The notes under the pieces are model-generated. The model had not been told where the DNA came from, searched no databases, and worked only from the letters and a program-made list of their open reading frames with translations. From an uncultured Elusimicrobia bacterium (GTDB taxonomy: Bacteria > Elusimicrobiota > Elusimicrobia > UBA1565 > UBA9628): a stretch of DNA of 64,000 bases. Positions 4,697-62,002 of the stretch are shown here, piece after piece. The stretch spans positions 19,823 through 83,822 of the forward strand of contig CAIKVT010000026.1 in the NCBI GenBank assembly GCA_903830945.1. Reading direction: 5' to 3'. How positions within the stretch are numbered: position 1 is the stretch's first letter; every line of letters begins with the position of its first letter. The position numbers were made by a program, and so were the translations under genes.

Positions 4697-5840
4697 GCAG
4701 ATCCCGCAGGGCCTGCCAGACCTCATCGACGGACACCTTACGCTCCCCGGCGTCTATGACGCGGTGGCCAGGAAGATGGCCATAGCCGTAGCGCCACGGC
4801 TCACTGCTCCATGTCGCACTGCCCAGGAAAAGCTCGACGGTTGACACGCCCAACGCCACGGCTAGATGCATGGGCCCGGTGTCCGCCGTGACCACGGCCC
4901 GGGACTGGGACAGGACCGAGGCGAAGCGCCGCAAAGGCAGGGAAGGCGCCATAACAAGACCGTCCGGGAGACGGAGTCCTGAAAGCAGGAACTTCTCGGC
5001 GGGACCCGCGAAGAGAACGCAACGGCGGCCCTGGGCCAGGATGCGACGCGCCAGCTCGAGGAACGACGAAAGCGGCCAGCGCTTCTCCGCGCGCGCGCCC
5101 ACGAAGAGGGCGACGCTGTCACCCTCCAGCCCCCAGGAGGACCAAAGGACCTCTCCGTCGGCGCGCTCCTCTACGCTGAGATGGCACTCCGGCTGGGCCG
5201 ACTCCGGCTCCTCCATGCCCACGGCGACGAGATGCCTGAGCAGGCCAAGCTGTATCTGCGTCTCATGCAGCGGCAGAGCCGGCTGGGGCACCAGTTCGTT
5301 GAGGAAGACCTTGGCGTCGCCACGGTCGAAGCCCACGGTCCGCCGCGCGCCGGAGAGCGCGGTGATGATCGCGCTGGAAAGTGAGAAGGCATGCATGGCC
5401 GATGCGTCGAAGGCCACATCGTAGCGATTGCCGCGCAAGGTCCGCAGCAGCCGCACGGGGAGCGTGGGGTCCGGCCAAAGAATCTCCTTGGGCAGGACGA
5501 ACTGTTCGTGGACGTTGGGATCTCCACGCAGGATCTCGCCGTAGGCATCGGAAACCAGGATGTCGGTGACGGAGGCGGTGAAGGCCGCCCGCAGGGCTTT
5601 CAGCAGGGGGGTCAAGAGGAGAAGGTTTCCCAACCGGCTGTCCTGCCGGACAATGAGCACCCGCCGCACGGAAGCGGGCTCGAGCCTGCCCATCTCCGGC
5701 TTGGGCCGGGGCAAGAACGCGCGCAGAAGGCCGCGCAATGCCCCGCTGCCGGCCCGCTCGAACCTCTTGGCGCCGTCCTTGAACCTGCCCATCCTGGCCG
5801 TTTCCTCCCGGAGCATCATCTTAGCAAACTGCCCGCTCAC
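4683..5840 (-). CDS. Glycosyltransferase family 9 (ADP-heptose:LPS heptosyltransferase-like)
   Basis: 385 aa with typical GT9 C-terminal motifs (VTADTGPMHLAVALGVSTVELF) and a GT-B fold pattern. Confidence 0.75.
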   Translation of the reverse strand: MSGQFAKMMLREETARMGRFKDGAKRFERAGSGALRGLLRAFLPRPKPEMGRLEPASVRRVLIVRQDSRLGNLLLLTPLLKALRAAFTASVTDILVSDAYGEILRGDPNVHEQFVLPKEILWPDPTLPVRLLRTLRGNRYDVAFDASAMHAFSLSSAIITALSGARRTVGFDRGDAKVFLNELVPQPALPLHETQIQLGLLRHLVAVGMEEPESAQPECHLSVEERADGEVLWSSWGLEGDSVALFVGARAEKRWPLSSFLELARRILAQGRRCVLFAGPAEKFLLSGLRLPDGLVMAPSLPLRRFASVLSQSRAVVTADTGPMHLAVALGVSTVELFLGSATWSSEPWRYGYGHLPGHRVIDAGERKVSVDEVWQALRDLPIVA

Positions 5841-5866
5841 GAAGAATCAAATAAGCTGGAATCTTC

Positions 5867-5896
5867 TTGCCAGTATGCGGTTTCCCATGCTAGCAT
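5867..5896 (+). promoter_or_regulatory. Candidate sigma70-like promoter for the hybrid HK (TTGCCA - 18 nt - TAGCAT)
   Basis: AT-richer divergent intergenic region between the GT9 gene and the HK. Hexamers found by eye; nothing else supports it. Confidence 0.2.
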
Positions 5897-5927
5897 AGGG
5901 CATCGAGGGACTTCCCTCGCCACCCTA

Positions 5928-8900
5928 ATGAAAAAGCCCGCTCGCCGGCCCAGCAAGAAGCGCCTGTCCCGCAAGATGGGCCCGGTCAGGACCACGGATG
6001 CGATGCCCAACGCTCCGATCAAAAAACACCACCAGACCGAAAAAACGCTGAACGAATCCAAAGGCAAGCGCAAAGCCATCTTCCATGCTGGCATCAAGTC
6101 CAGCCCGCTCGTTATGGGCGGGCGCGCCCACATCACAGGCGTCTTCACGGACAGCACCTCGCGCCAAGAGAACAAGCGCTCCTTGCGCTTGATGAAATGC
6201 GTGATGGAGCGCACTTCAGACGCGGTCTTATTTGTCGATGGAAACGGCCGGATACGCTACGGCAATCCGGCCGCCTGCCGGCACCTCGGCTACGATAAAG
6301 AAGAGCTGCTTCGACTGTCGATTTGGGACATCGACCCGGCTTTCCCTCCGGACAAAAGAAAAAAGCTGCTCTGGGCCAATCTCAAGGCCGGGGATACGAC
6401 GCATTTCGAGACCACCCATCGCGTCAAGGACGGACGCCTCGTGCCCGTGGAAGTCACCATCAACCACATCACATTCGAAAACAAGGGACTCAACATCTCC
6501 TTCTGCCGCGACATCAGCGCGCGCAAGCAGGCGGAGGAGACCCGGCATCGCCTGAGTCGAGAACTGCGAGCCCTCAGCAACTGCAACCAGACCTTATTGC
6601 GGGCTAAGGACGAACAGACGCTGCTCAACGACGTCTGCCGCATCATCTGCGACGAGGCTGGCTACCGCTTGGCCTGGATAGGATATGCCGAGCATGACAA
6701 GGCCAAGACCGTTCGGCTGGCGGCCTGGGCCGGGTTCGAGGACGGCTACGTCACAAACGCCCACCTCTCCTGGGCCGACACGAAACAGGGGCGCGGCCCC
6801 ACCGGAACCACCATCCGGAGCGGAGAGATGGTCTTCACCAAGGATTTCGCCACGGACCCCAAAATGGCTCCGTGGCGCAACCAGGCCTTACAGCATGGAT
6901 ATCGCTCCAGTATCGCTCTCCCACTGAAAGACAAAAACGCAAACACTTTCGGCGCCCTCACTGTCTACTCCACGGAACCCAATTCCTTCACAACAGACGA
7001 AATACGGCTCCTAGAAGAACTGGCGGACGATCTGGCGTTCGGCATCATGGTCCAGCGCGCCCGCATCAAGCACCAGCACTCCAAAGAGGAGCTCGCTTTT
7101 TCCGAGAAAAAATTCTCCCTCGCTTTCAATGTCAGCCCGGACGCGATGGCCATCACCGATCTGGAGACCGCCGACATCGTCGACGTAAACGAGGCGTTCG
7201 TGGCCTGGTCCGGGTACACTCGCCAAGAACTGCTCGGCCGACACAGCAACACCCTCCACTTATGGGTGTCTCCCGAGGAACGCAGCCAAGTCGTGGCAAA
7301 ACTAAAATCCAGCTCCGGCACGGTCAGGATTACAACGTTGGCCAAGGTCAAGGACGGCAGTCTCCGTCACATCGTTTTCTCCGCGAATCTGATCCAAATA
7401 GAGGGCCGGACCTATCTCTTGAGCCTGACACACGACATCACCGAGCGCATAAGGGATGAAGAGGCGCGCGCGTTGAACTCCCAACGCCTGCAGGCGCTGC
7501 TGAAGCTAAACCAGATGACGCAGGCGACGTTGCAGGAGATCACGGACTTCACCTTGGAAGAGGCCGTACGGCTGACCCAAAGCAAAATCGGCTATCTGGC
7601 GTTTCTCAACGAGGATGAGAGCGTCCTCACCATGCACTCCTGGTCGAAATCCGCCATGGCAGAATGCGCCACCAGCGAGACGCCGCTCCGGTATCCTGTC
7701 GCGACCACCGGACTCTGGGGCGAAGCGGTCCGGCAGCGCCAGCCCGTCATCACCAACGATTACACCACCGCCAACCCATTGAAAAAAGGCTATCCTCAAG
7801 GCCACGTGGTCATCAAACGTCACATGAATATCCCCGTCGTCGAGGACTCCCGGATCGTCATTGTCGCGGGTGTAGGCAACAAAACCGAAGAGTACAATCA
7901 AGGCGACGTCCAGCAATTAACCCTGCTGATGGAAGGCATGTGGCGCCTTTTGGAGCGCAAGCGCGCGGAGGAGGAGCACACGCGGCTCCTGGAAGCGGAA
8001 AAGGCGGCCCGCGTCGAAGCCGAGGTCGCCAACAAGGCCAAGGACGATTTCCTGGCCATCGTCTCCCACGAACTGCGCACGCCTCTGACCGCCATCATGG
8101 GCTGGATCTGGCTGCTGCGCTCGGGCCAGCTCGCGGAGGAGGAGCGCCAGAACGCCTTGGACACCATCATGCGCAACATGCAGTCCCAGCGGCAGATCGT
8201 CGAGGACCTCATCGACGTGTCGAGCCTTTCGCGGGGGCAATTAAATTTGAGCCACGACCCCGTGGAATTGAACGCCATATTAGGCTCCGCCTGCGACTCG
8301 CTGGGACAACTGGTGCAAGGCCGCGATATCCGCCTGAGTCGCAAACTGTCGGAACCGGTCGGCGTCTTGGGAGACGCCAGACGGTTGCAGCAAGTCTTCA
8401 CGAACCTCTTGCACAACGCCATGAAGTTCACCCCGAAAGGAGGGGAGATCCGCGTGTCCCTGAACCAGGAAGGCGGCCAGGCCGTGGCCGTGGTGCAAGA
8501 CAGCGGCAAAGGCATCGCGGCTGATTTCCTGCCGCATGTCTTCGAGGCCTTCCGCCAAGGGGAAGACCCTCTCATCCGCGAACACCAAGGCCTGGGCTTG
8601 GGCTTGGCCATCGTCAAGCGTCTCGTGGAGCTCCACGACGGGACGGTGTCCGCGGTGAGCGCGGGCAAGGGCCGCGGCGCGATCTTCACCGTGCGCCTGC
8701 CCGCCGTAACTTGGCCGCCGCTGGGACAAGCCGCTCGCGCCACCCGAAGCGCGCCCGACCGGAGCATCCTCGAAGGCATCAACATCCTGGTCGTCGAAGA
8801 CGAGGCCGACGCGCGACAACTGCTCCAGCAGCTGCTCTCACGCTTCGGAGCCCTGGTCACAAACGTGGCCGACGCCGCCGAAGCCTGGGCGAGCCTGGAA

Positions 8901-9146
8901 CGATCCGTGCCCGACCTGCTGCTCTGCGACATCGCCCTGCCCGGGGAGGACGGCTGTGCACTGATACGAAAGGTGCGCAGCCGCGGCGGCAAGCTCGGAG
9001 CATTGCCGGCGGCCGCGCTGACCGCCATGGCTCAGGAAACCGACCGCGCCCGCGCGCTCAAAGCCGGCTTCCAGGTTTACCTGACCAAGCCCATAGAGCC
9101 GCCACAGCTCTTGGAGACGGTGCGTGCGCTCGTTGGCCGGCGCTGA
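5928..9146 (+). CDS. Multi-sensor hybrid histidine kinase (PAS-GAF-PAS-GAF-HisKA-HATPase_c-REC), cytoplasmic
   Basis: H-box FLAIVSHELRTPLTAI, N/G boxes (LLHNAMKFTP, DSGKGI, GLGLGLAIVKRLVELHDG) and a C-terminal receiver (ILVVEDEADARQ...LLLCDIALPGEDG...LTA...K). Two PAS-like and two GAF-like sensor blocks, no TM segment. The track ORF starts at 5391, but 5391..5927 is antisense of the GT9 gene; the in-frame ATG at 5928 (MKKPARRPSKK...) is the likely start, and ATG near 6192 (MKCVMERTSD) is an alternative. Confidence 0.85.
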   Translation: MKKPARRPSKKRLSRKMGPVRTTDAMPNAPIKKHHQTEKTLNESKGKRKAIFHAGIKSSPLVMGGRAHITGVFTDSTSRQENKRSLRLMKCVMERTSDAVLFVDGNGRIRYGNPAACRHLGYDKEELLRLSIWDIDPAFPPDKRKKLLWANLKAGDTTHFETTHRVKDGRLVPVEVTINHITFENKGLNISFCRDISARKQAEETRHRLSRELRALSNCNQTLLRAKDEQTLLNDVCRIICDEAGYRLAWIGYAEHDKAKTVRLAAWAGFEDGYVTNAHLSWADTKQGRGPTGTTIRSGEMVFTKDFATDPKMAPWRNQALQHGYRSSIALPLKDKNANTFGALTVYSTEPNSFTTDEIRLLEELADDLAFGIMVQRARIKHQHSKEELAFSEKKFSLAFNVSPDAMAITDLETADIVDVNEAFVAWSGYTRQELLGRHSNTLHLWVSPEERSQVVAKLKSSSGTVRITTLAKVKDGSLRHIVFSANLIQIEGRTYLLSLTHDITERIRDEEARALNSQRLQALLKLNQMTQATLQEITDFTLEEAVRLTQSKIGYLAFLNEDESVLTMHSWSKSAMAECATSETPLRYPVATTGLWGEAVRQRQPVITNDYTTANPLKKGYPQGHVVIKRHMNIPVVEDSRIVIVAGVGNKTEEYNQGDVQQLTLLMEGMWRLLERKRAEEEHTRLLEAEKAARVEAEVANKAKDDFLAIVSHELRTPLTAIMGWIWLLRSGQLAEEERQNALDTIMRNMQSQRQIVEDLIDVSSLSRGQLNLSHDPVELNAILGSACDSLGQLVQGRDIRLSRKLSEPVGVLGDARRLQQVFTNLLHNAMKFTPKGGEIRVSLNQEGGQAVAVVQDSGKGIAADFLPHVFEAFRQGEDPLIREHQGLGLGLAIVKRLVELHDGTVSAVSAGKGRGAIFTVRLPAVTWPPLGQAARATRSAPDRSILEGINILVVEDEADARQLLQQLLSRFGALVTNVADAAEAWASLERSVPDLLLCDIALPGEDGCALIRKVRSRGGKLGALPAAALTAMAQETDRARALKAGFQVYLTKPIEPPQLLETVRALVGRR

Positions 9147-9154
9147 AGAGAGGG

Positions 9155-9550
9155 CTACTTCTCCACGGCGGAAGCGACCAAGCCCCGGCCGGCGGCCAGG
9201 ACCGGCTGGTCCCAGAACGCGCAGACCACGGCCGCAAGCAAAAAAACAAAAGCCATGAAGTAATTGAGGCGCAGCCTCTCACCCAGATACAACCAAGCGA
9301 AGGCCACGAAGACGCAGAGAGTGATGACTTCCTGGATGATCTTGAGCTGGTAGCCGCTGAAGTACCCGTAGCCGATTCGATTGGCAGGGACCTGGAAGCA
9401 GTACTCGGCCAGAGCGATGCCCCAGCTCACCAGGATCGCGAGCCCCAAGGGCGAAGCTCGGTACTTAAGATGCCCGTACCAAGCCACGGTCATGAATAGG
9501 TTCGAGACGAACAACAAAAGGATCGTCGTCATGCTTGTTCTCCTGGGCAT
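9155..9550 (-). CDS. Small 4-TM membrane protein, DMT-superfamily-like (DUF486-like)
   Basis: ~125 aa and four predicted TM helices, with the motif FMTVAWYGHLK...QLKIIQEVITL that I associate with DUF486 small DMT-like proteins. Confidence 0.45.
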   Translation of the reverse strand: MPRRTSMTTILLLFVSNLFMTVAWYGHLKYRASPLGLAILVSWGIALAEYCFQVPANRIGYGYFSGYQLKIIQEVITLCVFVAFAWLYLGERLRLNYFMAFVFLLAAVVCAFWDQPVLAAGRGLVASAVEK

Positions 9551-9557
9551 CAGGACA

Positions 9558-9887
9558 TCAGCTCGGTTTCCTCGCGGCCAGGGCGAAATTGAAAAAATAG
9601 CGATTCAGGCCAGCCAAGTCCGTGTGATATTCTTTGCCACCGAACCAAGCGTCGCAAAGCAGTTCACGCGCTCGCACGATCTCCTTGAGACGGTTGCGCC
9701 AGCGCGGGTCTTGAATCGTGAGATCCAAAAGATCGAGCGCCCTGATCATGGCCCGCTCAAAAAGCTGCGGGTCCTTTTTTTCCCAACGCAGCGCCCGGCT
9801 GACCTCGCTGCCCACATTCCCCAACTGCTCCACGAGGGAAAACCTGCCCCAACCGCCGGCCGCCAGAGCGGGATGCTGGGTCTTCAC
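9558..9887 (-). CDS. Hypothetical small all-alpha protein (weak MazG-like NTP-pyrophosphohydrolase resemblance)
   Basis: 109 aa, with acidic-residue spacing (VEQLGNVGSEVSRAL ... ERAMIRALDLLDL) reminiscent of the MazG-type fold. Translationally coupled (4-nt overlap) to the downstream DUF5674-like gene. Confidence 0.35.
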   Translation of the reverse strand: MKTQHPALAAGGWGRFSLVEQLGNVGSEVSRALRWEKKDPQLFERAMIRALDLLDLTIQDPRWRNRLKEIVRARELLCDAWFGGKEYHTDLAGLNRYFFNFALAARKPS

Positions 9888-10240
9888 AGGGATTGAGGCA
9901 GAATCATCTTCTTCACGATATGCAGGATTCGCGTCTGGATTTCCGGATTCTCGACACCCCGCGAACGGTTGTTTTGCGAAGGCCTCACATTGATCATGGA
10001 ATCGAACTCGATCCTATCTTCTGGCGGCTTCTCGGGATAAATATTAATGCCCCACAAATGCTCCTGTTGAGAACCATCCTCCAAGAGCAGGGACTCTTCA
10101 TCGGCATGAAGCTCTCCGCCGATGGCCAGCACTTCCCTCTGCACGTCCACCGCGGCCTTGATCATGTCGCCGAATTGAGCCTGAGCCAACTTCACAACAT
10201 CAGACAAAAAAATCGGATTTTTTATAACGCGTATTTCCAT
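9884..10240 (-). CDS. DUF5674-like small protein
   Basis: MEIRVIKNPIFLSDVVKLAQAQFGDMIKAAVDVQREVLAIGGELHADEESLLLEDGSQQEHLWGINIYP...EFDSMINVRPSQNNRSRGVENPEI matches my recollection of the DUF5674 family. Start set at the ATG at 10240 because the longer track ORF (to 10288) would overlap tRNA-His. Markedly lower GC (~48%) than the flanks. Confidence 0.5.
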   Translation of the reverse strand: MEIRVIKNPIFLSDVVKLAQAQFGDMIKAAVDVQREVLAIGGELHADEESLLLEDGSQQEHLWGINIYPEKPPEDRIEFDSMINVRPSQNNRSRGVENPEIQTRILHIVKKMILPQSL

Positions 10241-10245
10241 AAAAA

Positions 10246-10323
10246 TGGGGTGAGTGAGGGGACTTGAACCCCCGGCCTCCTGGTTCACAGCCAGGCGCTC
10301 TAACCAGCTGAGCTACACCCACC
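10246..10323 (-). tRNA. tRNA-His (anticodon GTG), with G-1 encoded and CCA encoded
   Basis: Reverse complement folds as a cloverleaf: 8-bp acceptor including G-1:C73, D arm GCTC/GAGC, anticodon loop CTGTGAA, T loop TTCAAGT, 3' CCA. Confidence 0.85.
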
Positions 10324-10458
10324 GAAGACCGACATTATAGCAGTTTGCGGCTTTTTGAATCCGCTTCCAGATATAGGTCCTTCGACCCACGAAACGCCAG
10401 GCCCAGCGCCCCTCGCCAAAGGCCCCTACAATGAACATAATATTATCTGCGGAGAGGA

Positions 10459-11706
10459 TTGGCCATGAAACTGACATTTCTGACGACAGCCGGCCTGGTT
10501 GCCTCCCTCCTCACAATAACCCCTCCAGCGACCGCGGCCCCAAGATCCAGGAAAACGGCGGACCGCTCGCCGGTGGTGGCCTTGCTCAAGAAAGGCTTAG
10601 CCGACCTTAACCGGCGCGATTTTGACGCGGCCATCCTGAAGTTCACCAAGGCGACCAGACTCAGCTCCAATTGCCGAGCGCTGTTCCTCCTCGGTTTGGC
10701 CCACTACGAGCGGGGCTCCCAAGGCGGCGACCCCGACACCGCGGACAAGAACGAAGCGCAGGCGGCCGCCGGCGCCTACGCCAAGGCCATGTCCCTCGAC
10801 CCCGGCCTCAAAGCCATCACCGATCCCGCCCGATTCTACAAGAGCCTCGCTTGGTCCTACGAAGTCCTCCGACATTACGACAAAGCCGCCGCCGCCTACG
10901 AGTCGGCCGCCGCCGCCGCGCCCCAGAACCCCATGCTCCCGCTCCAAGCGGCCCGCGTCTACAGCCGCATGGGCGAGCCGGTCAAGGCCGCGCAGAGCCT
11001 CGCCGCCAGCCTCTCGCGGGCGCGGCGGATCAAACAGGAAAGCCTCATCCTCCAAACCGTCCGCAGCAACCCCAGATTATCCGCCATGCTCGCTTATCCT
11101 GACGTCGCAGCCGTTCTCGCTGATCCTACGCCCGTCAAGGATACGCTGGCCCAGGCGGCGCCGCTCTCCAGATCGGAGGAACTGCGCGACGCGGTCTCGG
11201 ACCGGGACCCGACCCGGGCCCAGAAACTGACCGCCGCGCCGCGGCCCAACCCCGCGGCCATAGACGCCCTGGCCGCAGGCGACGATAATTTCAATTTCCG
11301 ACAGTACCGGACCGCCATCAAAGCCTACGGCGAAGCCGCCCGGCTCGACGCCAAGATAAAGACCTTGAGCCCGGTGCAACACACCATCCTCTACGAGCGC
11401 ATGGGAACCTCCTACAACCACCTCGGCTTGGCCGAAGAGGCGGTACTTCCCCTGCAGCGGGCCCTACAGGCCATGCCCAACAACGCCGCCGCCCATTACC
11501 AGCTGGCTCTAGCCTACTCGGTCTCAGGCCGGTTCACCGAATCCCTACGCGCCCTGGCCGGCACCTTCGAGTCCACGCCTTCAAAATCCGAACTGCGCAA
11601 ATATCTGCTGCTGGCCAAAAGCGACTCAGAACTCGAACCGGTCCGCGACCTATCCGGCTTCGCCATCTTGCTGGACCGCTACGAAGAGCAGCTCACCCGA
11701 CGCTGA
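10459..11706 (+). CDS. Secreted TPR-repeat protein
   Basis: Signal peptide MKLTFLTTAGLVASLLTITPPATAAP followed by multiple TPR-like helical repeats. RBS GAGAGGA upstream. Confidence 0.6.
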   Translation: MAMKLTFLTTAGLVASLLTITPPATAAPRSRKTADRSPVVALLKKGLADLNRRDFDAAILKFTKATRLSSNCRALFLLGLAHYERGSQGGDPDTADKNEAQAAAGAYAKAMSLDPGLKAITDPARFYKSLAWSYEVLRHYDKAAAAYESAAAAAPQNPMLPLQAARVYSRMGEPVKAAQSLAASLSRARRIKQESLILQTVRSNPRLSAMLAYPDVAAVLADPTPVKDTLAQAAPLSRSEELRDAVSDRDPTRAQKLTAAPRPNPAAIDALAAGDDNFNFRQYRTAIKAYGEAARLDAKIKTLSPVQHTILYERMGTSYNHLGLAEEAVLPLQRALQAMPNNAAAHYQLALAYSVSGRFTESLRALAGTFESTPSKSELRKYLLLAKSDSELEPVRDLSGFAILLDRYEEQLTRR

Positions 11707-11784
11707 GCGCGATGGCCTTCTCCAAGAGAGAAGCTCCGCAAAGTCAGCGGCTCATCTTAGGCCTGACGAGTTGAAAGACTCCCC

Positions 11785-13029
11785 CTAAGCGGCTGTTTTC
11801 GAAGCGCGCGCCTTGTGCCGAAGCCGCAGATCGGCCTTGACGACCTTGGCCAGCCGCTTGATGCCCTCGTCGATCTGCTCCGGAGTAGGATAGGAGAAGT
11901 TCAGGCGCATGGTGTTCTGCCCGCTGCCGTCGCAATGGAAAGCGGAGCCAATGACATAGGCCACGTTCTCCTTGATGGCCTCGGAGAACAGCTCGTCGGC
12001 GTTCATGTTCTCGGGCAGGCGCACCAAAAGAAACAACCCGCCTTCCGGATTAGTCCAGGTCACGCCCTCGGGCATATAGCGCTCCAGAGCCTGGAGCATG
12101 GCGTCCTTACGGGCCCGATAGAGCTTCTTGACGCCGGCGATGTGCTCGCGCGCGACCCCGGACTTAAGGAACTCCGTGGCCAGCAGCTGATTCAATGACG
12201 ACGTGCATAAGTCCAAAGACTGCTTCAGGATGCCCATCTTCTGGATGATACGCTCGTCGGCCAAGATGTAGCCCAGGCGCAGTCCCGGGGCCAAAGTCTT
12301 GGAGAAGGTGAACAACGAGATCACGTTGTGGGTCGTATCGAGCTTGTAGAGCATGTCCGGAGACTTGCCCTCGAAGCGCACCTCGCGATAGGGGGAGTCT
12401 TCAATGAGCAGGATGTTATAGCGTTCGGATAGTTTGATGAGCTCTAAGCGGCGCTCCTGGGTCATGGTCACACCGCTTGGGTTCTGAAAGTCGGGCACGA
12501 TGTAGACGAACTTATAGTGCTCCTCCTCCTGACGCAGTTTCGCGAGCTTGGCCTCCAGGTCGTCGATGAGCATGCCGTGGTCGTCAGCCTTGATGCCCAT
12601 GATCTTGGCCCCATAGGAGTTGAAGACCTGCAGGCCGCCGATGTAGCTGGGCAGTTCCACCAGGATAGGATCGGAGGGGTCGATGAAGGTCCGGCCTACA
12701 ATATCGAGGGCCTGCTGAGAAGCTGTGGTCACAAGAATGTTGTCCGGCGAAGCGTTGATGCCCTCCTCCTCACGCAGGAGCTTGATGATCTGGGCCTTGA
12801 GCTCGGGCAAACCCTCGGTCGGCCCGTACTGCAGGGCCGTCTTGGAATTGGTCCTGATAATACGCGCGGCCATCTCGGCCAGGGCTTCTGAGGGGAATGT
12901 CTGAGGAGACGGCAGGCCGCCGGCAAAAGAAATGATCTCCGGCTTGTTGGTGAGCTTGAGCAACTCCCGGATGACAGAAGCCTTGGTGCGACGGTTAACC
13001 GTGGCGAGGTTCTTAACGAGGTCGATCAT
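11785..13029 (-). CDS. PLP-dependent aminotransferase, class I/II (2-aminoadipate/aromatic aminotransferase-like)
   Basis: 414 aa with aminotransferase fold motifs (FAGGLPSP, LQYGPTEG, NPSG, FSKTLAPGLRLGY with the PLP-lysine). Confidence 0.85.
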   Translation of the reverse strand: MIDLVKNLATVNRRTKASVIRELLKLTNKPEIISFAGGLPSPQTFPSEALAEMAARIIRTNSKTALQYGPTEGLPELKAQIIKLLREEEGINASPDNILVTTASQQALDIVGRTFIDPSDPILVELPSYIGGLQVFNSYGAKIMGIKADDHGMLIDDLEAKLAKLRQEEEHYKFVYIVPDFQNPSGVTMTQERRLELIKLSERYNILLIEDSPYREVRFEGKSPDMLYKLDTTHNVISLFTFSKTLAPGLRLGYILADERIIQKMGILKQSLDLCTSSLNQLLATEFLKSGVAREHIAGVKKLYRARKDAMLQALERYMPEGVTWTNPEGGLFLLVRLPENMNADELFSEAIKENVAYVIGSAFHCDGSGQNTMRLNFSYPTPEQIDEGIKRLAKVVKADLRLRHKARASKTAA

Positions 13030-39785: not shown

Positions 39786-40352
39786 TTACCGGGTCTCCAC
39801 GGCGCGGATGATCGCCAAAGCGGCGGCCGGCTCGAGAGAGGCCGCCAGGTCCGCGATGACCCCGGGCTGGAACAAGGAGGCGACCCCGCGCAGGAGCTGC
39901 AGGTGCAACGGCAGGATCTCCGGCTTGCTGGAGGAGAAGAACAGAAACATAAGTTTGATGGTCAGATCTCCGGCCTGGGGGTCCGCTATGCCCTGAGGGA
40001 CCAAGGCCAGAGCCGCCATGATGCTCCCGATCGAATCCACCCGGGCATGAGGCAGGCTCAGCCCCGTATCCAAGGTGGTGCTGATGCCCTGCTCACGCTC
40101 CAGCACTTTAGCCAAAAAAGGCTTAGGGCTTCCCAGAGCTTTGCGCTCGCAGAGCCGGCCGACCAGTATCTCGATGAGCTCATTCTTGCCCACCCCAAGC
40201 GGAGCCCGGATCACCACATCTTCGCTTAAAATATTTGAAATAGCTATCTTTTTGGGCCGGACCAAGGCCCCGGCTTTATCGGAGAGCTTCTCCAGTCCTG
40301 CCGGCTCGGCCGCTGGTCTATTTTTCTTATCAGGGAAGAACGACAACACCAT
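39786..40352 (-). CDS. PTS EIIA type-2 / nitrogen-regulatory EIIA(Ntr)-like protein
   Basis: EREQGISTTLDTGLSLPHARV (active-site His region) pattern of PtsN/EIIA-Fru family; 188 aa. Confidence 0.6.
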   Translation of the reverse strand: MVLSFFPDKKNRPAAEPAGLEKLSDKAGALVRPKKIAISNILSEDVVIRAPLGVGKNELIEILVGRLCERKALGSPKPFLAKVLEREQGISTTLDTGLSLPHARVDSIGSIMAALALVPQGIADPQAGDLTIKLMFLFFSSSKPEILPLHLQLLRGVASLFQPGVIADLAASLEPAAALAIIRAVETR

Positions 40353-40399
40353 GGGGATTCGCCTTTTTATAGAGGATTTTCAATTATATCATTCGAGAA

Positions 40400-41236
40400 G
40401 TGGACTGTCAAAACAGAGAGTTGGTAAAATACCGGGTGTTTCGCAAACCCCTCACAGGCAGGACCATCCTATTGACGCGGCCAGAAGGCCCGGCCGGCCC
40501 TCTGGCGGACGGCCTGCGGGCGCTCGGCGCGCGCGTCTGGATCGTGCCGGTCATTCGCTTCGCGCCGCCCGCGTCCTGGGCGCGCTTGGACGCGGCGCTG
40601 CGCCGCATGAGACTTTACGACGCCGCAGTCTTCGCGAGCGCACGCGCCGTGGAAAGCGTCTTTTCCCGCGCCTTAGTCCTGGGCCTGATCCTGTCGCCAC
40701 CGCGCCGGGTCTTCGCCGTAGGCCCGGCCACGGCCCGTGCCCTGCGCCGCAGAGGCTGGCGGGCCGCGATGCCCGGCACGCATCGCGCCGAGGACTTGGC
40801 CACGATCACGGGTCAGGTACGAGGCAAAAGGATATTCCTGCCCCGGGCGAAGGAAGGCCGCGATATCCTACCGCGCCTCCTGCGCGCGCAGGAGGCCAGG
40901 GTCGATGTCGTCACCTCTTACCGCACCCTAGCGGACCACAACGGCGCGCGGCGCTTGCGCCGGATCGCGGACTCAGGCCGGGTCCACGCCGTCGCCTTCA
41001 CCTCCGGCTCCACCGTAGATTGCCTTTTAGAGCAGCTTCCCGCGGCTTATCGCCGCCGCCTATTCAACAAGGCGGTGGCCGCCTCCATAGGACCGGCCAC
41101 CAGCGCAGCACTCGAACGCCGGGGAGTCAAGACGGTCATAGAAGCTCCGCGCGCCACAATGCTCTCCCTCTGCGGCGCCATCGCCCGTCATTTCTCCGCG
41201 GCTCCAGGCTTGACCGCATCCGGACGATCCCGATGA
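40400..41236 (+). CDS. hemD: Uroporphyrinogen-III synthase
   Basis: GRTILLTRPEG ... two Rossmann-like halves (VAFTSGSTV); 278 aa. Confidence 0.7.
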   Translation: MDCQNRELVKYRVFRKPLTGRTILLTRPEGPAGPLADGLRALGARVWIVPVIRFAPPASWARLDAALRRMRLYDAAVFASARAVESVFSRALVLGLILSPPRRVFAVGPATARALRRRGWRAAMPGTHRAEDLATITGQVRGKRIFLPRAKEGRDILPRLLRAQEARVDVVTSYRTLADHNGARRLRRIADSGRVHAVAFTSGSTVDCLLEQLPAAYRRRLFNKAVAASIGPATSAALERRGVKTVIEAPRATMLSLCGAIARHFSAAPGLTASGRSR

Positions 41237-42033
41237 AGCCTGGATCCGAACGTGCTGAGTTGCGCCGCATCTTGCAGGAAGCCCTGGACCGGGCCAGCCG
41301 GGTGCTCCGGAGGCGATTCGGCTCGGTGAGCATCCGCTACAAGGGCCGAGCCAACCTCATCACGCAGGCCGACCTTGAAAGCCAGGCGACCATCCTGGCC
41401 CTGATCCGCCGTCGTCTGCCTCTTCATGACTACCGCGCCGAAGAAAAAGCTTGCCGGGATACCGGCTCGGAGTTCGTCTGGATCATCGACCCCCTAGACG
41501 GAACCACCAACTTCGCTCACGGCTATCCGGTCAGTTGCGTGTCCATCGCCCTGCTTCAACGCGGCCGCCCCATACTCGCCGGCATCCACGACCCGTTCCG
41601 CGATGAGCGCTTCCTGGCCGAAGCTGGACGTGGGGCCCGGCTCAACGGCAGACCAGTGCGCGTCTCCTCGGTACCCCGTCTTTCGCAATCCCTGCTCATC
41701 ACGGGCTTTCCCTACGACCGCAACAAACGCCCCGGCTACTACACCGAGTTCTACCGCTCCTTCATGGTCCGCTGCCACGACGTGCGCCGCAGCGGCTCGG
41801 CCGCTCTGGATATGGCCTGGGTGGCGGCGGGACGCGCCGACGGCTTCTGGGAATTCAACCTGAACCCCTGGGACGTGGCCGCGGGCCTGCTGCTTGTGCG
41901 CGAGGCGGGGGGGAAGGTCTCGGATTTCCATGGCCGTCCCTGGGACGGGATCGCGTCTTTCGGCCATCAGACTTTGGCCAGCAACGGCCGCATCCACGAC
42001 GCGATGTTGCGCGTGCTCGGCCCGCGCCTCTGA
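41233..42033 (+). CDS. Inositol monophosphatase family protein (SuhB/IMPase-like)
   Basis: WIIDPLDGTTNFAHG, WDVAAG motifs. ATGA overlap with the hemD stop. The long track ORF 40075..42033 is a fused artefact of two in-frame genes plus antisense. Confidence 0.85.
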   Translation: MKPGSERAELRRILQEALDRASRVLRRRFGSVSIRYKGRANLITQADLESQATILALIRRRLPLHDYRAEEKACRDTGSEFVWIIDPLDGTTNFAHGYPVSCVSIALLQRGRPILAGIHDPFRDERFLAEAGRGARLNGRPVRVSSVPRLSQSLLITGFPYDRNKRPGYYTEFYRSFMVRCHDVRRSGSAALDMAWVAAGRADGFWEFNLNPWDVAAGLLLVREAGGKVSDFHGRPWDGIASFGHQTLASNGRIHDAMLRVLGPRL

Positions 42034-61261: not shown

Positions 61262-61332
61262 GCGGGCGTGGTTCAATGGTAGAACGGGAGCTTCCCAAGC
61301 TCTAAACGAGGGTTCGATTCCCTTCGCCCGCT
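61262..61332 (+). tRNA. tRNA-Gly (anticodon CCC), CCA not encoded
   Basis: GCGGGCG acceptor, GTTC/GAAC D stem, anticodon loop TTCCCAA, T loop TTCGATT, discriminator T. Confidence 0.85.
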
Positions 61333-61423
61333 CGTTTTCTCTTCGGAGATTGCCTTCCTGACTTAGCCGCACGACGGAGTCTGGATATTTTGTAAAGTCT
61401 GGACATATGGGAGGATTCCATCT

Positions 61424-62002
61424 ATGATTCGCCGGCATGGTGTCTTTGGTGAGCTTGGCTGGCAAGCGAGATCCGTCTGCCTCATCGGTAGTGCGATAGT
61501 GGTTCTGGGTCTCGCCAGCTGCGCCACGTGGCAGGGATTCAACACTCCCACCGGCCAGTCCGGAGTCACGATTCGGGGCGTCACGAAGCAGCAGGTCTCC
61601 GACGTCCTCCAGGAGCGCCTCTTCAATAGGGGCTGGAAGATCGAGACCGTGAACGACCGCACAGTGATCGCATCCAAGCAGAGGAGGAATAACGCCACCG
61701 GATCGCAGATCGGCTCGCGTTCCGATTCCGTCACTGACGGGCGCGTGACTTATAATTTGCTCGATGTTAAGGGCGGCATCCGGGTCGTCGCTAAACTCGA
61801 AATCATCATGAATCCAGGGACGGAATCAGAACAAGTCACGGATGCGACAAATACCGAGTCAGGGGCTAATATGCGGGACACTCTCCGAGAGATATCCGCA
61901 GCACTCTCGGAGAAGCAGGCTGCCACTAAAACGACAGGACTGCCTCGGATTCCGGTCAAGGATGGGACGCTTGAGCTTTCCCCACAAAAAAACACGCCGT
62001 AG
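61424..62002 (+). CDS. Hypothetical lipoprotein (lower-GC gene downstream of tRNA-Gly)
   Basis: Lipobox LGLASC; no recognisable domains; GC ~50% against ~65% in the flanks. Confidence 0.4.
   Translation: MIRRHGVFGELGWQARSVCLIGSAIVVLGLASCATWQGFNTPTGQSGVTIRGVTKQQVSDVLQERLFNRGWKIETVNDRTVIASKQRRNNATGSQIGSRSDSVTDGRVTYNLLDVKGGIRVVAKLEIIMNPGTESEQVTDATNTESGANMRDTLREISAALSEKQAATKTTGLPRIPVKDGTLELSPQKNTP

Follow-up and report, generated by a model that had tools for sequence, protein, structure and literature searches.

A strictly paired DUF5674 gene and its basic partner gene behind tRNA-His in an uncultured Elusimicrobia bacterium

Among the type II toxin-antitoxin (TA) systems, toxin-first operons are known, including higBA, hicAB and mqsRA. 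The gene pair described here likewise consists of two small, co-directional, overlapping and self-contained genes; the downstream gene outlives the upstream gene and not the reverse, and some copies are found on plasmids. However, the pair has no homology to TA families, is very conserved and is largely vertically inherited; its upstream protein is acidic, whereas the downstream protein is basic and has no recognised DNA-binding domain. Protein genes inside tRNA operons are also known, for example thrU-tyrU-glyT-thrT-tufB of E. coli. The pair is similarly located directly behind a same-strand tRNA gene and, in the window, lacks a promoter of its own; however, its 5-nt spacer would leave an almost leaderless mRNA after processing, and the pair is linked to at least 10 tRNA contexts and not to one conserved operon. 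The upstream protein matches the Pfam family PF18924 (DUF5674) over its full length and with a high score. The description of this family gives no assigned function and does not include the obligate partner, the putative leaderless expression or the tRNA linkage, and no mention of DUF5674 was found in the literature searched. Other near known systems were also compared, including the MazG-type all-α NTP pyrophosphohydrolases (1vmg, 2p06), which share a small helical bundle and a loosely similar acidic pattern with the downstream protein (p109), the FliS-type helical-bundle chaperones (3iqc, 1orj), and, for DUF5674, the PHPT1/Janus phosphohistidine phosphatase (2nmm; PF05005).

The window is a 64,000-nt stretch of DNA from an uncultured Elusimicrobia bacterium. 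It contains a tRNA-His gene and three small genes on the same strand (Table 1), at the positions given for them in an earlier note. The identification of DUF5674 and DMT_6 in that note was also correct: the first protein matches PF18924 over its full length (E 1e-33, 116.1 bits against a cut-off of 27; residues 5-112 on profile positions 2-109 of 109), and the third matches PF04342 (E 1e-43, 148 bits against a cut-off of 25). The tRNA and the first gene are indeed adjacent, whereas the gap between them had been given as 6 nt and is shorter by sequence. This short spacer leaves no place for a Shine-Dalgarno (SD) site or a promoter before the start codon. Compared with two related loci (L008 and L094), it looks like the result of a 27-nt deletion between TTTAT repeats; the 6-nt spacer of a third locus (L093) has arisen independently. 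The proposed translational coupling of the first two genes agrees with the overlap of their stop and start codons. No terminator was found between tRNA-His and the pair, and no RNA element other than tRNA-His was found in 8900..10700. The promoter consensus scan returned 2 sites against 0.5 expected, which are pattern matches and not evidence of function; the site in Table 1 is the sole promoter-like site on the minus strand that could drive tRNA-His together with the pair. The DMT_6 gene has its own SD site (AGGAG) 8 nt before the ATG at 9532, and gene callers choose this second ATG, giving 125 aa.

Table 1. Coordinates of the features at the tRNA-His locus of the window
Feature	Position	Strand	Details
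Candidate sigma-70-type promoter	10437..10465	-	TGGCCA-17-TATTAT; consensus scan; ~115 nt upstream of tRNA-His
tRNA-His(GTG)	10246..10322	-	ARAGORN; Rfam tRNA 70 bits; CCA encoded; G-1 encoded at 10323
Spacer, tRNA CCA end to DUF5674 ATG	10241..10245	-	TTTTT (minus strand); 5 nt, sequence
DUF5674 gene	9884..10240	-	ATG at 10240; 118 aa + stop; Pfam PF18924
Overlap of DUF5674 stop and p109 start	9884..9887	-	GTGA; 4 nt, sequence
p109 gene	9558..9887	-	GTG start at 9887, stop 9558; 109 aa + stop
DMT_6 (DUF486) membrane-protein gene	9155..9532 (9550 by longest ORF)	-	Pfam PF04342

The combination of DUF5674 with the 109-aa protein had been called uncharacterised in the earlier note, and it proved to be an obligate pair. 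The p109 gene lies directly 3' of DUF5674 in 79 of the 80 species loci, from more than 12 phyla, and the 80th locus is cut by the contig end. The reverse search found an intact DUF5674 gene at 63 of 70 assessable p109 loci, and 44 of 71 related loci show the 4-nt overlap. There is no third conserved gene: neighbour clusters are shared by at most 4 of the 80 loci, the 145 upstream ORFs belong to 131 different Pfam families (none found in more than three), and synteny with neighbours such as GAPDH, SecA, cinA-ligT or TPR/Asp-protease genes is seen at the lineage level only. The true unit is two strongly conserved genes and, most probably, no inserted island. The pair is present in at least 550 GTDB species of more than 12 phyla, including many CPR lineages. 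The mean column identity of both proteins is 60% across phyla, their pairwise identities co-vary (r = 0.62), and they carry opposite charges family-wide (median pI 4.9 for DUF5674 vs 9.7 for p109). The GC and GC3 of the pair follow those of the host over 71 genomes (r = 0.94 and 0.87, slope 0.93), and the nearest neighbour shares the phylum in 51 of 76 cases, where 8 would be expected. A defence-system or phage gene was also considered and rejected, as no PADLOC, PHROG or phage match was obtained and only one of 2.9 million viral contigs carries the pair.

The DUF5674 protein of the window is an acidic α/β protein (pI 5.0), and all 61 aligned homologues also match PF18924. The conserved features include an invariant acidic/His cluster and a flexible loop rich in Arg, Asn and Gln; there is no conserved Cys. 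The p109 protein is a basic five-helix bundle (pI 9.8) with no match in Pfam, NCBIfam or the PDB sequences. Searches with the two proteins returned no characterised family and no solved fold as a match. For DUF5674, a deamidase fold of the CNF1/YfiH/CheD/NTAN1 type gave recurrent weak matches, and was rejected because the alignments span just some 50 residues (TM 0.2-0.3) and no Cys is conserved. A sole domain fusion was observed (P0295, 302 aa), on a single 1.6-kb contig; its extra domain has no Pfam match.

The loss of the two genes is asymmetric. An intact p109 stands alone at 7 of 70 loci, whereas an intact DUF5674 without an intact p109 was found at 0 of 78 (Fisher p = 0.004); this is a comparison of two collections, GTDB genomes and metagenome contigs, and the events are partly non-independent phylogenetically. 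The loci with an intact p109 and a deleted or truncated DUF5674 are L093, L104, L108, L123, L144, L153 and L159; L087 is a further case. The orphan p109 of L104 is conserved and in frame over 11 contigs, which suggests that it has a function of its own. In the proposed mechanism, DUF5674 would work only through p109, or p109 would keep DUF5674 in check, and p109 might function or persist alone.

Promoter positions in the relatives suggest how the pair might be expressed. The distance from the end of a -10 hexamer (TANNNT) to the start codon is exactly 6 nt in 26 of 134 loci; 20 of these have the extended TG. Within 5-9 nt before the start, such a box ends in 42 of the 134 loci, against 22 in the control window of equal size 15-19 nt upstream and 11, 5 and 6 in the others. 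An SD-like motif is absent in 94 of 116 loci. From the position of the -10 box alone, a leaderless mRNA is implied for many relatives, and the family-wide arrangement would be an operon without an SD leader that is typically transcribed as leaderless mRNA. In the window, no -10 box precedes the ATG, and the tRNA ends 5 nt ahead of it. The pair is also associated with tRNA genes elsewhere: 25 tRNA genes are found in 72 kb adjoining pairs vs 14 in 657 kb elsewhere, an enrichment of about 16-fold, counted over loci irrespective of shared ancestry. Of these 25 genes, 22 are on the same strand as the pair, in at least 10 different contexts. One CPR lineage (L156) has the gene order tRNA-Thr, rpmG, DUF5674, p109 and tRNA-Trp. 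In the Elusimicrobia clade of the window, the leaderless promoter may have been replaced by read-through from tRNA-His, and the 3' processing of the tRNA would release an mRNA with a 5-nt leader.

The reading that we favour, although tentatively and with slightly less than even confidence, is that the two genes form a lineage-native, self-contained operon, the products of which would act together as a complex; the operon would be transcribed by read-through from tRNA-His, and its GC dip would be intrinsic. The acidic α/β DUF5674 and the translationally coupled basic p109 would form a 1:1 complex.

The main rival is a TA-like addiction module, in which DUF5674 would be a toxin of new fold and p109 its co-translated antidote; this is possible, but on the whole somewhat unlikely. 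The two small overlapping genes without a third partner, their variable contexts and the loss of DUF5674 but not of p109 are all expected of such a module, since a toxin may be lost and its antidote not. Several orphan p109 genes also adjoin genes of toxin or addiction type: the neighbours in L104, L108, L123 and L153 are presumably RelE/ParE-, Doc- or addiction-type proteins, judging from the ORF translations, and in L087 a ParE pair was identified by Pfam. The phyletic distribution is patchy, and diverged copies are located near IS elements on 33 cyanobacterial plasmids, some of which carry two; one MAG also has two copies (L035 and L072). Plasmid-borne, IS-near and duplicated copies are traits of selfish modules rather than of housekeeping genes. 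Homology of p109 to the downstream partner on the cyanobacterial plasmids was tried and is not significant (E 0.04-0.07), with the same register each time. The suggested leaderless mRNA might also fit a TA operon, as leaderless transcripts are typical of M. tuberculosis TA operons according to one publication (PMC8485053).

However, the conservation of both proteins greatly exceeds that of typical TA pairs, and the inheritance is mostly vertical with an ameliorated composition. The charges are reversed from the usual arrangement, an acidic putative toxin being combined with a basic putative antidote; no HTH, RHH or AbrB domain was recognised in p109. As had been noted from the sequence, the two small proteins fall outside the known TA families: no TA, PADLOC or PHROG model was matched. 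Among the neighbours overall there is no enrichment of TA or mobile genes, and in L156 the pair is embedded in the rpmG/tRNA operon. The retention of the orphan p109 of L104 also argues against this reading.

The earlier note had read the locus as a low-GC islet of three genes integrated at tRNA-His. A horizontally acquired islet inserted at the 3' side of the tRNA, comprising either the three genes or only the pair, with the low GC as a donor signature, is now improbable. The low-GC dip itself is real: with a GC of 0.492, 9890..10245 has the lowest value among the 356-nt windows of the 64 kb, which average 0.640 with an sd of 0.040 (0.009% are as low). The GC is 0.587 for 9155..9890 and 0.561 for 9155..10323, which is among the lowest 0.7% of windows of the same size. 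At the 1-kb scale the dip is unremarkable, being matched by the bins at 6-8 kb, 12-13 kb and 61-62 kb. The codon usage is unusual in the pair: the GC3 of DUF5674 is the lowest of about 55 genes in the window (mean 0.80, sd 0.057; z = -3.3), and that of p109 is also low (0.71, z = -1.6), whereas the GC3 of DMT_6 is native (0.81). These values would fit a foreign origin. However, the GC1/2/3 of DUF5674 are 0.58/0.30/0.61, so that codon positions 1 and 2, through the conserved amino-acid composition, account for about 8 of the 14 missing GC points, and the low GC3 accounts for about 6. The composition of a conserved protein, which the note had considered as a sole cause, thus explains more than half of the deficit and leaves the low GC3 as a remainder.

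The low GC3 of DUF5674 is concentrated in the first 25 codons (GC3 0.44). An AT-rich 5' coding end is strong in the window (0.40 vs 0.53) and small in the other high-GC genomes (0.589 vs 0.606); as a family-wide feature it accounts for only part of the dip and was rejected as the full cause. On the favoured reading, the dip would be a property of DUF5674 itself, arising from conserved low-GC amino acids and an AT-rich, structure-poor 5' coding end, together with a GC3 deficit common to its closest homologues. These are L085, L086, L014 and L088 (70-84% identical), which keep a low GC3 (0.59-0.67) in four differing contexts. The synonymous third-position identity between the window and L085/L086 is 0.60-0.69, which exceeds the saturation level of roughly 0.5. 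Both observations are points for acquisition, and they would be compatible with the two-gene cassette having spread laterally among Elusimicrobia, or having replaced a resident allele, in fairly recent times. As a point against the native reading, the differing contexts and the low GC3 of these homologues hint at mobility within Elusimicrobia.

The traces of an integration event were also sought. The 3' end of tRNA-His (28 nt) occurs only once in the 64 kb with up to 3 mismatches allowed, so no att copy was found; there are no relevant direct repeats in 5000..12000, and no integrase or recombinase is encoded within about 9 kb on either side (precomputed Pfam, same-species contig L001). The search further out that had been proposed for an integrase or att repeat was thus negative over these ranges. 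The comparison of the tRNA-His locus, which covers distant Elusimicrobia and not same-genus relatives, showed that the junction tRNA-His/TTTTTAT/DUF5674/p109 is homologous in L007, L008, L093 and L094. Their tRNA-His genes are almost identical to that of the window, and their pairs are 65-70% identical to the window pair, whereas the flanking TPR protein is 33-34% identical. The pair GC3 is host-like (0.82-0.86) in the three intact pairs measured (L007, L008 and L094), and the window pair clusters with Elusimicrobia pairs only, in a pure cluster of 10. The pair therefore appears ancestral at tRNA-His, which the earlier note had named as evidence against acquisition. In L087 the pair or a remnant is also located behind tRNA-His, after a 4.4-kb insertion, which shows that insertion at this tRNA-His does occur in a relative. 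Acquisition would fit only as a homologous exchange of the resident allele, and not as a new insertion. DMT_6 is a neighbour outside the module: it was found at 0 of the 80 DUF5674 loci and at none of the 18 irregular metagenome loci listed, and with its native GC3 and its own SD site the three-gene unit was rejected.

The weakest alternative, an enzyme pair in which p109 would be a degenerate MazG-type NTP pyrophosphohydrolase and/or DUF5674 a distant phosphohistidine phosphatase of the PHPT1/Janus type, is very improbable. In its favour are a resemblance by eye of p109 (L-G-N-V-G-S-E...E-L-L-D) to the MazG helices (EExxE...ExxD) and an hhalign match of DUF5674 that sets only GELHAD against the catalytic AEYHAD of PHPT1. 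The MazG-like fold suggested in the earlier note was rejected as a specific assignment. MazG ranks 46th for p109, behind generic bundles, and none of 84 diverse p109 members has a MazG, PRA-PH or dUTPase_2 model among its matches at E <= 10 (25 families reported). The alignment has G-N at the place of the MazG EE, and E28 alone is nearly invariant; E52 and D55 occur in close relatives, but in the 84-sequence family alignment D55 falls below 90% conservation. The PHPT1-like phosphatase was not supported by a database search, the 27-sequence PHPT1 profile, hhalign or Foldseek. The hhalign probability is 0.2% against human PHPT1 and 0.3% against the profile, PF05005 is not among the families reported at E <= 10 for any of the 61 DUF5674 members, and PHPT1 was not returned by Foldseek.

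Returning to the native two-gene operon, the most likely function would be that of an RNA- or translation-directed enzyme with its partner. This is suggested by the acidic/His cluster and the Arg/Asn/Gln loop in DUF5674, by the basic nature of p109, and by the recurrent units shared with tRNA genes and rpmG. In its broadest form the proposal is rather doubtful: the pair might be a widespread two-protein system, in which a DUF5674 enzyme of new fold depends on the basic p109 and acts on tRNA or the translation apparatus, with its expression tied to tRNA units and leaderless translation. It would then be either a new toxin-antidote class or a translation-associated factor.

The locus also gives a caution, as a tRNA-adjacent GC dip can reflect the composition of a conserved gene and an SD-less 5' end, without integration. 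The island reading was an ordinary one and is largely wrong; however, it exposes a strictly paired and conserved gene couple for which no functional annotation, literature or structural relatives were found. The pair is retained even in the minimal CPR genomes and is found repeatedly in tRNA operons. If it does act on tRNA or ribosomes, or represents a new type of toxin-antidote, it would be a new component for many uncultivated phyla. It would also be an easily testable two-gene system, with plasmid-borne relatives in cultured strains of Nostoc and Anabaena.

The tRNA-His gene and the three minus-strand genes behind it, as reported in the earlier note, were borne out with two corrections: the CCA end of the tRNA lies 5 nt (TTTTT), and not 6, from the DUF5674 (Pfam PF18924) start codon, and the DUF5674 protein has 118 rather than 119 residues. 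Its identifications of the first and third genes, as DUF5674-like and DMT-like, also agree with the Pfam matches. The second gene encodes a 109-aa basic protein, named p109 here, which had zero matches in Pfam, NCBIfam, PADLOC and PHROGs. Its start codon overlaps the DUF5674 stop codon (GTGA).

Features of the tRNA-His locus and of other low-GC sites in the window
Feature	Position	Strand	Remarks
tRNA-His(GTG)	10246..10322	minus	G-1 (10323) and CCA encoded
DUF5674 gene	ATG 10240 to stop 9884	minus	118 aa; Pfam E 1e-33
p109 gene	GTG 9887 to stop 9558	minus	109 aa; ORF without family match
DMT_6 (DUF486) membrane-protein gene	9155..9532	minus	Pfam E 1e-43; own AGGAG 8 nt before ATG
Hybrid histidine kinase gene	5391..9146	plus	large; PAS/GAF domains, C-terminal receiver; convergent with DMT_6, stop codons 8 nt apart; initial ~170 codons of longest ORF seem non-coding; length by gene callers 1072 aa in one contig, 909 aa in others
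Second-lowest 356-nt GC window	40092..40460		GC 0.50; 5' end of the next ORF
ORF	40075..42030	plus	GC3 0.68
tRNA-Gly(CCC)	61262..61333		followed by the next ORF
ORF	61424..61999	same as tRNA-Gly	also a tRNA-adjacent low-GC gene; GC3 0.67, second-lowest in window; 1-kb bin GC 0.573

With each GTDB species represented by one genome, a scan found DUF5674 in at least 550 species, and the loci of the best 80 were compared. A p109 homologue lies directly downstream on the same strand in 79 of the 80, which confirms the co-occurrence that had been suggested for checking; the remaining locus ends at a contig edge. The two genes share the 4-nt overlap in 44 of 71 loci. DMT_6 accompanies the pair in none of the 80 loci, and all-against-all clustering showed no other flanking-ORF family in more than four of them. 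The Pfam scan placed 145 upstream neighbours in 131 different families, none found in more than three loci. Therefore, the actual unit is a two-gene module of DUF5674 and p109; the DMT_6 gene, previously counted in a three-gene unit, is an unrelated neighbour.

Homologues at 60-85% identity are numerous for both proteins, with Elusimicrobia first, followed by CPR and other phyla. The best 80 loci are from Elusimicrobia, Nitrospirota, many CPR lineages, Actinomycetota, Gemmatimonadota, Aminicenantes, WOR-1/3, Methylomirabilota/Rokubacteria, Planctomycetes, Chlamydiae and others, and a profile search of 1.8 billion representatives gave 1650 clusters of the p109 family. No mention of DUF5674 was found in the literature searched. 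For 51 of 76 pairs the closest relative comes from the same phylum (8 expected), and the window pair clusters purely with Elusimicrobia pairs. DUF5674 copies of a diverged subfamily (40-48% identity) are also located on 33 cyanobacterial plasmids (Nostoc, Calothrix, Trichormus and others), sometimes two per plasmid, near IS elements. Three large plasmids were examined, Nostoc punctiforme pNPUN01 (L089), Nostoc cf. commune pANSO36A (L090) and Trichormus variabilis plasmid A (L091); on them each copy is overlapped by a downstream gene for a hypothetical protein of ~118-124 aa; the similarity to p109 is non-significant (E 0.04-0.07), yet the register is always the same. IS4, IS66 or IS630 transposase genes are nearby; on two of these plasmids the next gene is a glutathione S-transferase gene, and L089 alone has ybaK in the vicinity. 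One MAG carries two copies (L035, L072). Phage records contained no DUF5674 copy, and a copy was present on 1 of 2.9 million viral contigs.

Of 116 loci, 94 lack an SD-like motif ahead of DUF5674. Among 134 loci, 26 have a TANNNT -10 hexamer whose end lies precisely 6 nt ahead of the start codon (20 with an extended TG), and 42 have one that ends 5-9 nt ahead of it, compared with 22 (15-19 nt upstream), 11, 5 and 6 in controls of equal size. With this spacing, transcription would begin at the start codon itself, and the mRNA would be leaderless in the relatives with such a box. The window lacks a -10 box ahead of the DUF5674 ATG; the sole promoter-like site on the minus strand of the locus, a candidate by sequence pattern, is upstream of tRNA-His, and no terminator separates the tRNA from the pair. 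Transcription would here read through from tRNA-His into the pair, and tRNA 3' processing would release the pair mRNA with a 5-nt leader.

The immediate surroundings of the pair show a strong excess of tRNA genes. Within ~240 nt of the pairs, 25 tRNA genes occur in 72 kb, versus 14 in the other 657 kb of the same loci (0.35 versus 0.021 per kb, 16-fold; binomial p 3e-16, uncorrected for ancestry). Of the 25, 22 share the strand of the pair; at least 10 tRNA contexts are represented (His, Thr/Trp, Gln, Asp/Val, Asp on the opposite strand, Asn/Ala, Ser, Arg, Lys and Ala). About half lie downstream of the pair, which is at odds with insertion by an integrase at tRNA 3' ends. A CPR-like 181-kb contig (L156:2404-3433) carries, in order, rnc, rpsP, KH protein, trmD, tRNA-Thr, rpmG, DUF5674, p109, tRNA-Trp, with rpmG and DUF5674 1 nt apart; the Thr/Trp flanking also occurs in L113, L127, L128, L129, L136, L138 and L151.

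The two genes are not lost equally. Among 70 assessable metagenome loci retrieved with p109, DUF5674 is intact upstream in 63 and missing or damaged in 7, whereas none of 78 loci anchored on DUF5674 has it intact without an intact p109 (Fisher p = 0.004, or 0.027 counting L013, where a single deletion damaged both genes; the two collections differ and some loss events are related). In L104 (561-917) and L108 (2953-3324), independent in-frame deletions join DUF5674 codons 1 to 8-10 (MEIKI.. and MAVKIVKNPIS..) onto full-length p109, which therefore keeps the DUF5674 translation start. The L104 form is present on 11 contigs, and the ORFs just upstream in L104 and L108 were recognised by eye as RelE/ParE-like and Doc-like. 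Short DUF5674 remnants precede p109 in L123, L153, L144 and L093, and none in L159. In L144 the remnant is the C-terminal 13 codons, and the p109 homologue (L144:2571-2900) is interrupted by an in-frame stop at codon 7 of a frame otherwise intact and conserved; the gene may be a pseudogene or be recoded, or the stop may be a sequencing error. The asymmetry may mean that DUF5674 is harmful without p109, as in toxin-antidote logic, or that it is useless without p109, as an accessory to a core protein.

The two proteins differ in charge, with an acidic DUF5674 (median pI 4.9, charge -6) and a basic p109 (median pI 9.7, charge +4.6), and their pairwise identities co-vary (r = 0.62). Because of the complementary charge, coupling and strict co-occurrence, a heterocomplex is likely. 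Our leading interpretation, held tentatively and at a little under even confidence, is a native co-translated two-protein module in which DUF5674 depends on p109, expressed leaderless or from the tRNA transcript and probably acting on RNA or translation. A new toxin-antidote module, the main rival, seems rather unlikely. Leaderless expression speaks for it, being described as a usual trait of TA operons in M. tuberculosis (PMC8485053). Against it are the extreme conservation and largely vertical inheritance of the pair, its reversed charge pattern and its occurrence in an rpmG/tRNA operon context.

The GC drop flagged over 9890..10245 is real (0.492, the minimum among all 356-nt windows of the 64 kb; mean 0.640, sd 0.040) and unexceptional at 1-kb resolution. 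DUF5674 (GC1/2/3 0.58/0.30/0.61) has the lowest GC3 of ~55 window genes (0.80 ± 0.057; z = -3.3), p109 has 0.71 (z = -1.6), and DMT_6 has a native 0.81. About 8 of the 14 GC points missing from DUF5674 come from codon positions 1 and 2 and the remainder from GC3, whose shortfall is concentrated in the first 25 codons (GC3 0.44); these AT-rich codons are consistent with translation initiating in an unstructured region that lacks an SD. In 71 genomes, pair GC and GC3 track the flanks (r = 0.94/0.91 and 0.87/0.86, slope ~0.93), with DUF5674 on average 4 GC points lower in high-GC genomes.

A tRNA-His gene is immediately upstream of the pair in L007, L008 and L094 and of a truncated copy in L093, and the junctions match the window at every base as far as TTTTTAT. 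In the window, a 27-nt spacer between two TTTAT repeats, seen in L008, L094 and L007, has apparently been deleted (10241..10245 versus L008:3969-4000); L093 has an independent 6-nt spacer and a GTG start. These four hosts are distant (flanking TPR protein 33-34% identical, pair 65-70%), and pair GC3 is host-like (0.82-0.86) in L007, L008 and L094. The Elusimicrobia relative L087 (JGI Ga0103681_1000181; L087:361-5333) keeps the TPR and tRNA-His genes, followed by a 4.4-kb insert with a 228-aa ORF, a TA pair (68-aa ORF and ParE-family toxin), a HEAT protein and two further ORFs; beyond it, the last 34 codons of DUF5674 adjoin an intact p109. In L087, then, tRNA-His was the site of a real insertion, by which most of DUF5674 was lost as well. 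The homologous junction in distant hosts with host-like GC3, and the L087 remnant, indicate that the tRNA-His linkage is ancestral in the Elusimicrobia clade of the window. No integrase was found within ~9 kb on either side, nor a second copy of the tRNA-His 3' end in the 64-kb window. An acquired three-gene islet is thus not upheld, and it survives only as allelic replacement of the pair, which is improbable. The closest homologues (L085, L086, L014, L088; p109 70-84% identical) do lie in four different contexts with low pair GC3 (0.59-0.67) against high-GC flanks, and their synonymous-site identity to the window (0.60-0.69) is above the saturation level of ~0.5. Their low GC3 could reflect subclade-specific codon bias, or fairly recent lateral spread or allelic replacement.

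The AF2 model of p109 is a five-helix bundle (pLDDT 92.5), and an 84-sequence profile found nothing relevant among PDB sequences. That of DUF5674 (pLDDT 86) has the order β-α-β-β-α-β, then a highly conserved, low-confidence loop (S-M-I-N-x-R-P-S-Q-x-N-R-S-R) and a C-terminal helix; K28, D32, H45, E49, W63, N84, P87 and N91 are invariant in 29 sequences including plasmid copies. Enzyme readings are jointly very improbable. For the MazG-like fold proposed for p109, the EExxE motif reads G-N, and no family member matches a MazG-type Pfam model among the families reported at E <= 10. A PHPT1-like DUF5674 finds no support either: a vertebrate PHPT1 profile aligns only at GELHAD/AEYHAD (probability 0.3%). 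One 302-aa protein (P0295, L172:307-1215), known from a single 1.6-kb contig, joins an N-terminal p109 domain to a 190-aa extension with an RQSITH (Rx4H-like) motif and no Pfam match; upstream of it, a truncated DUF5674 gene encodes 44 aa. The flagged islet is itself an ordinary feature; the gene pair that it encloses is a widespread uncharacterised system without clear structural relatives, and is readily testable.
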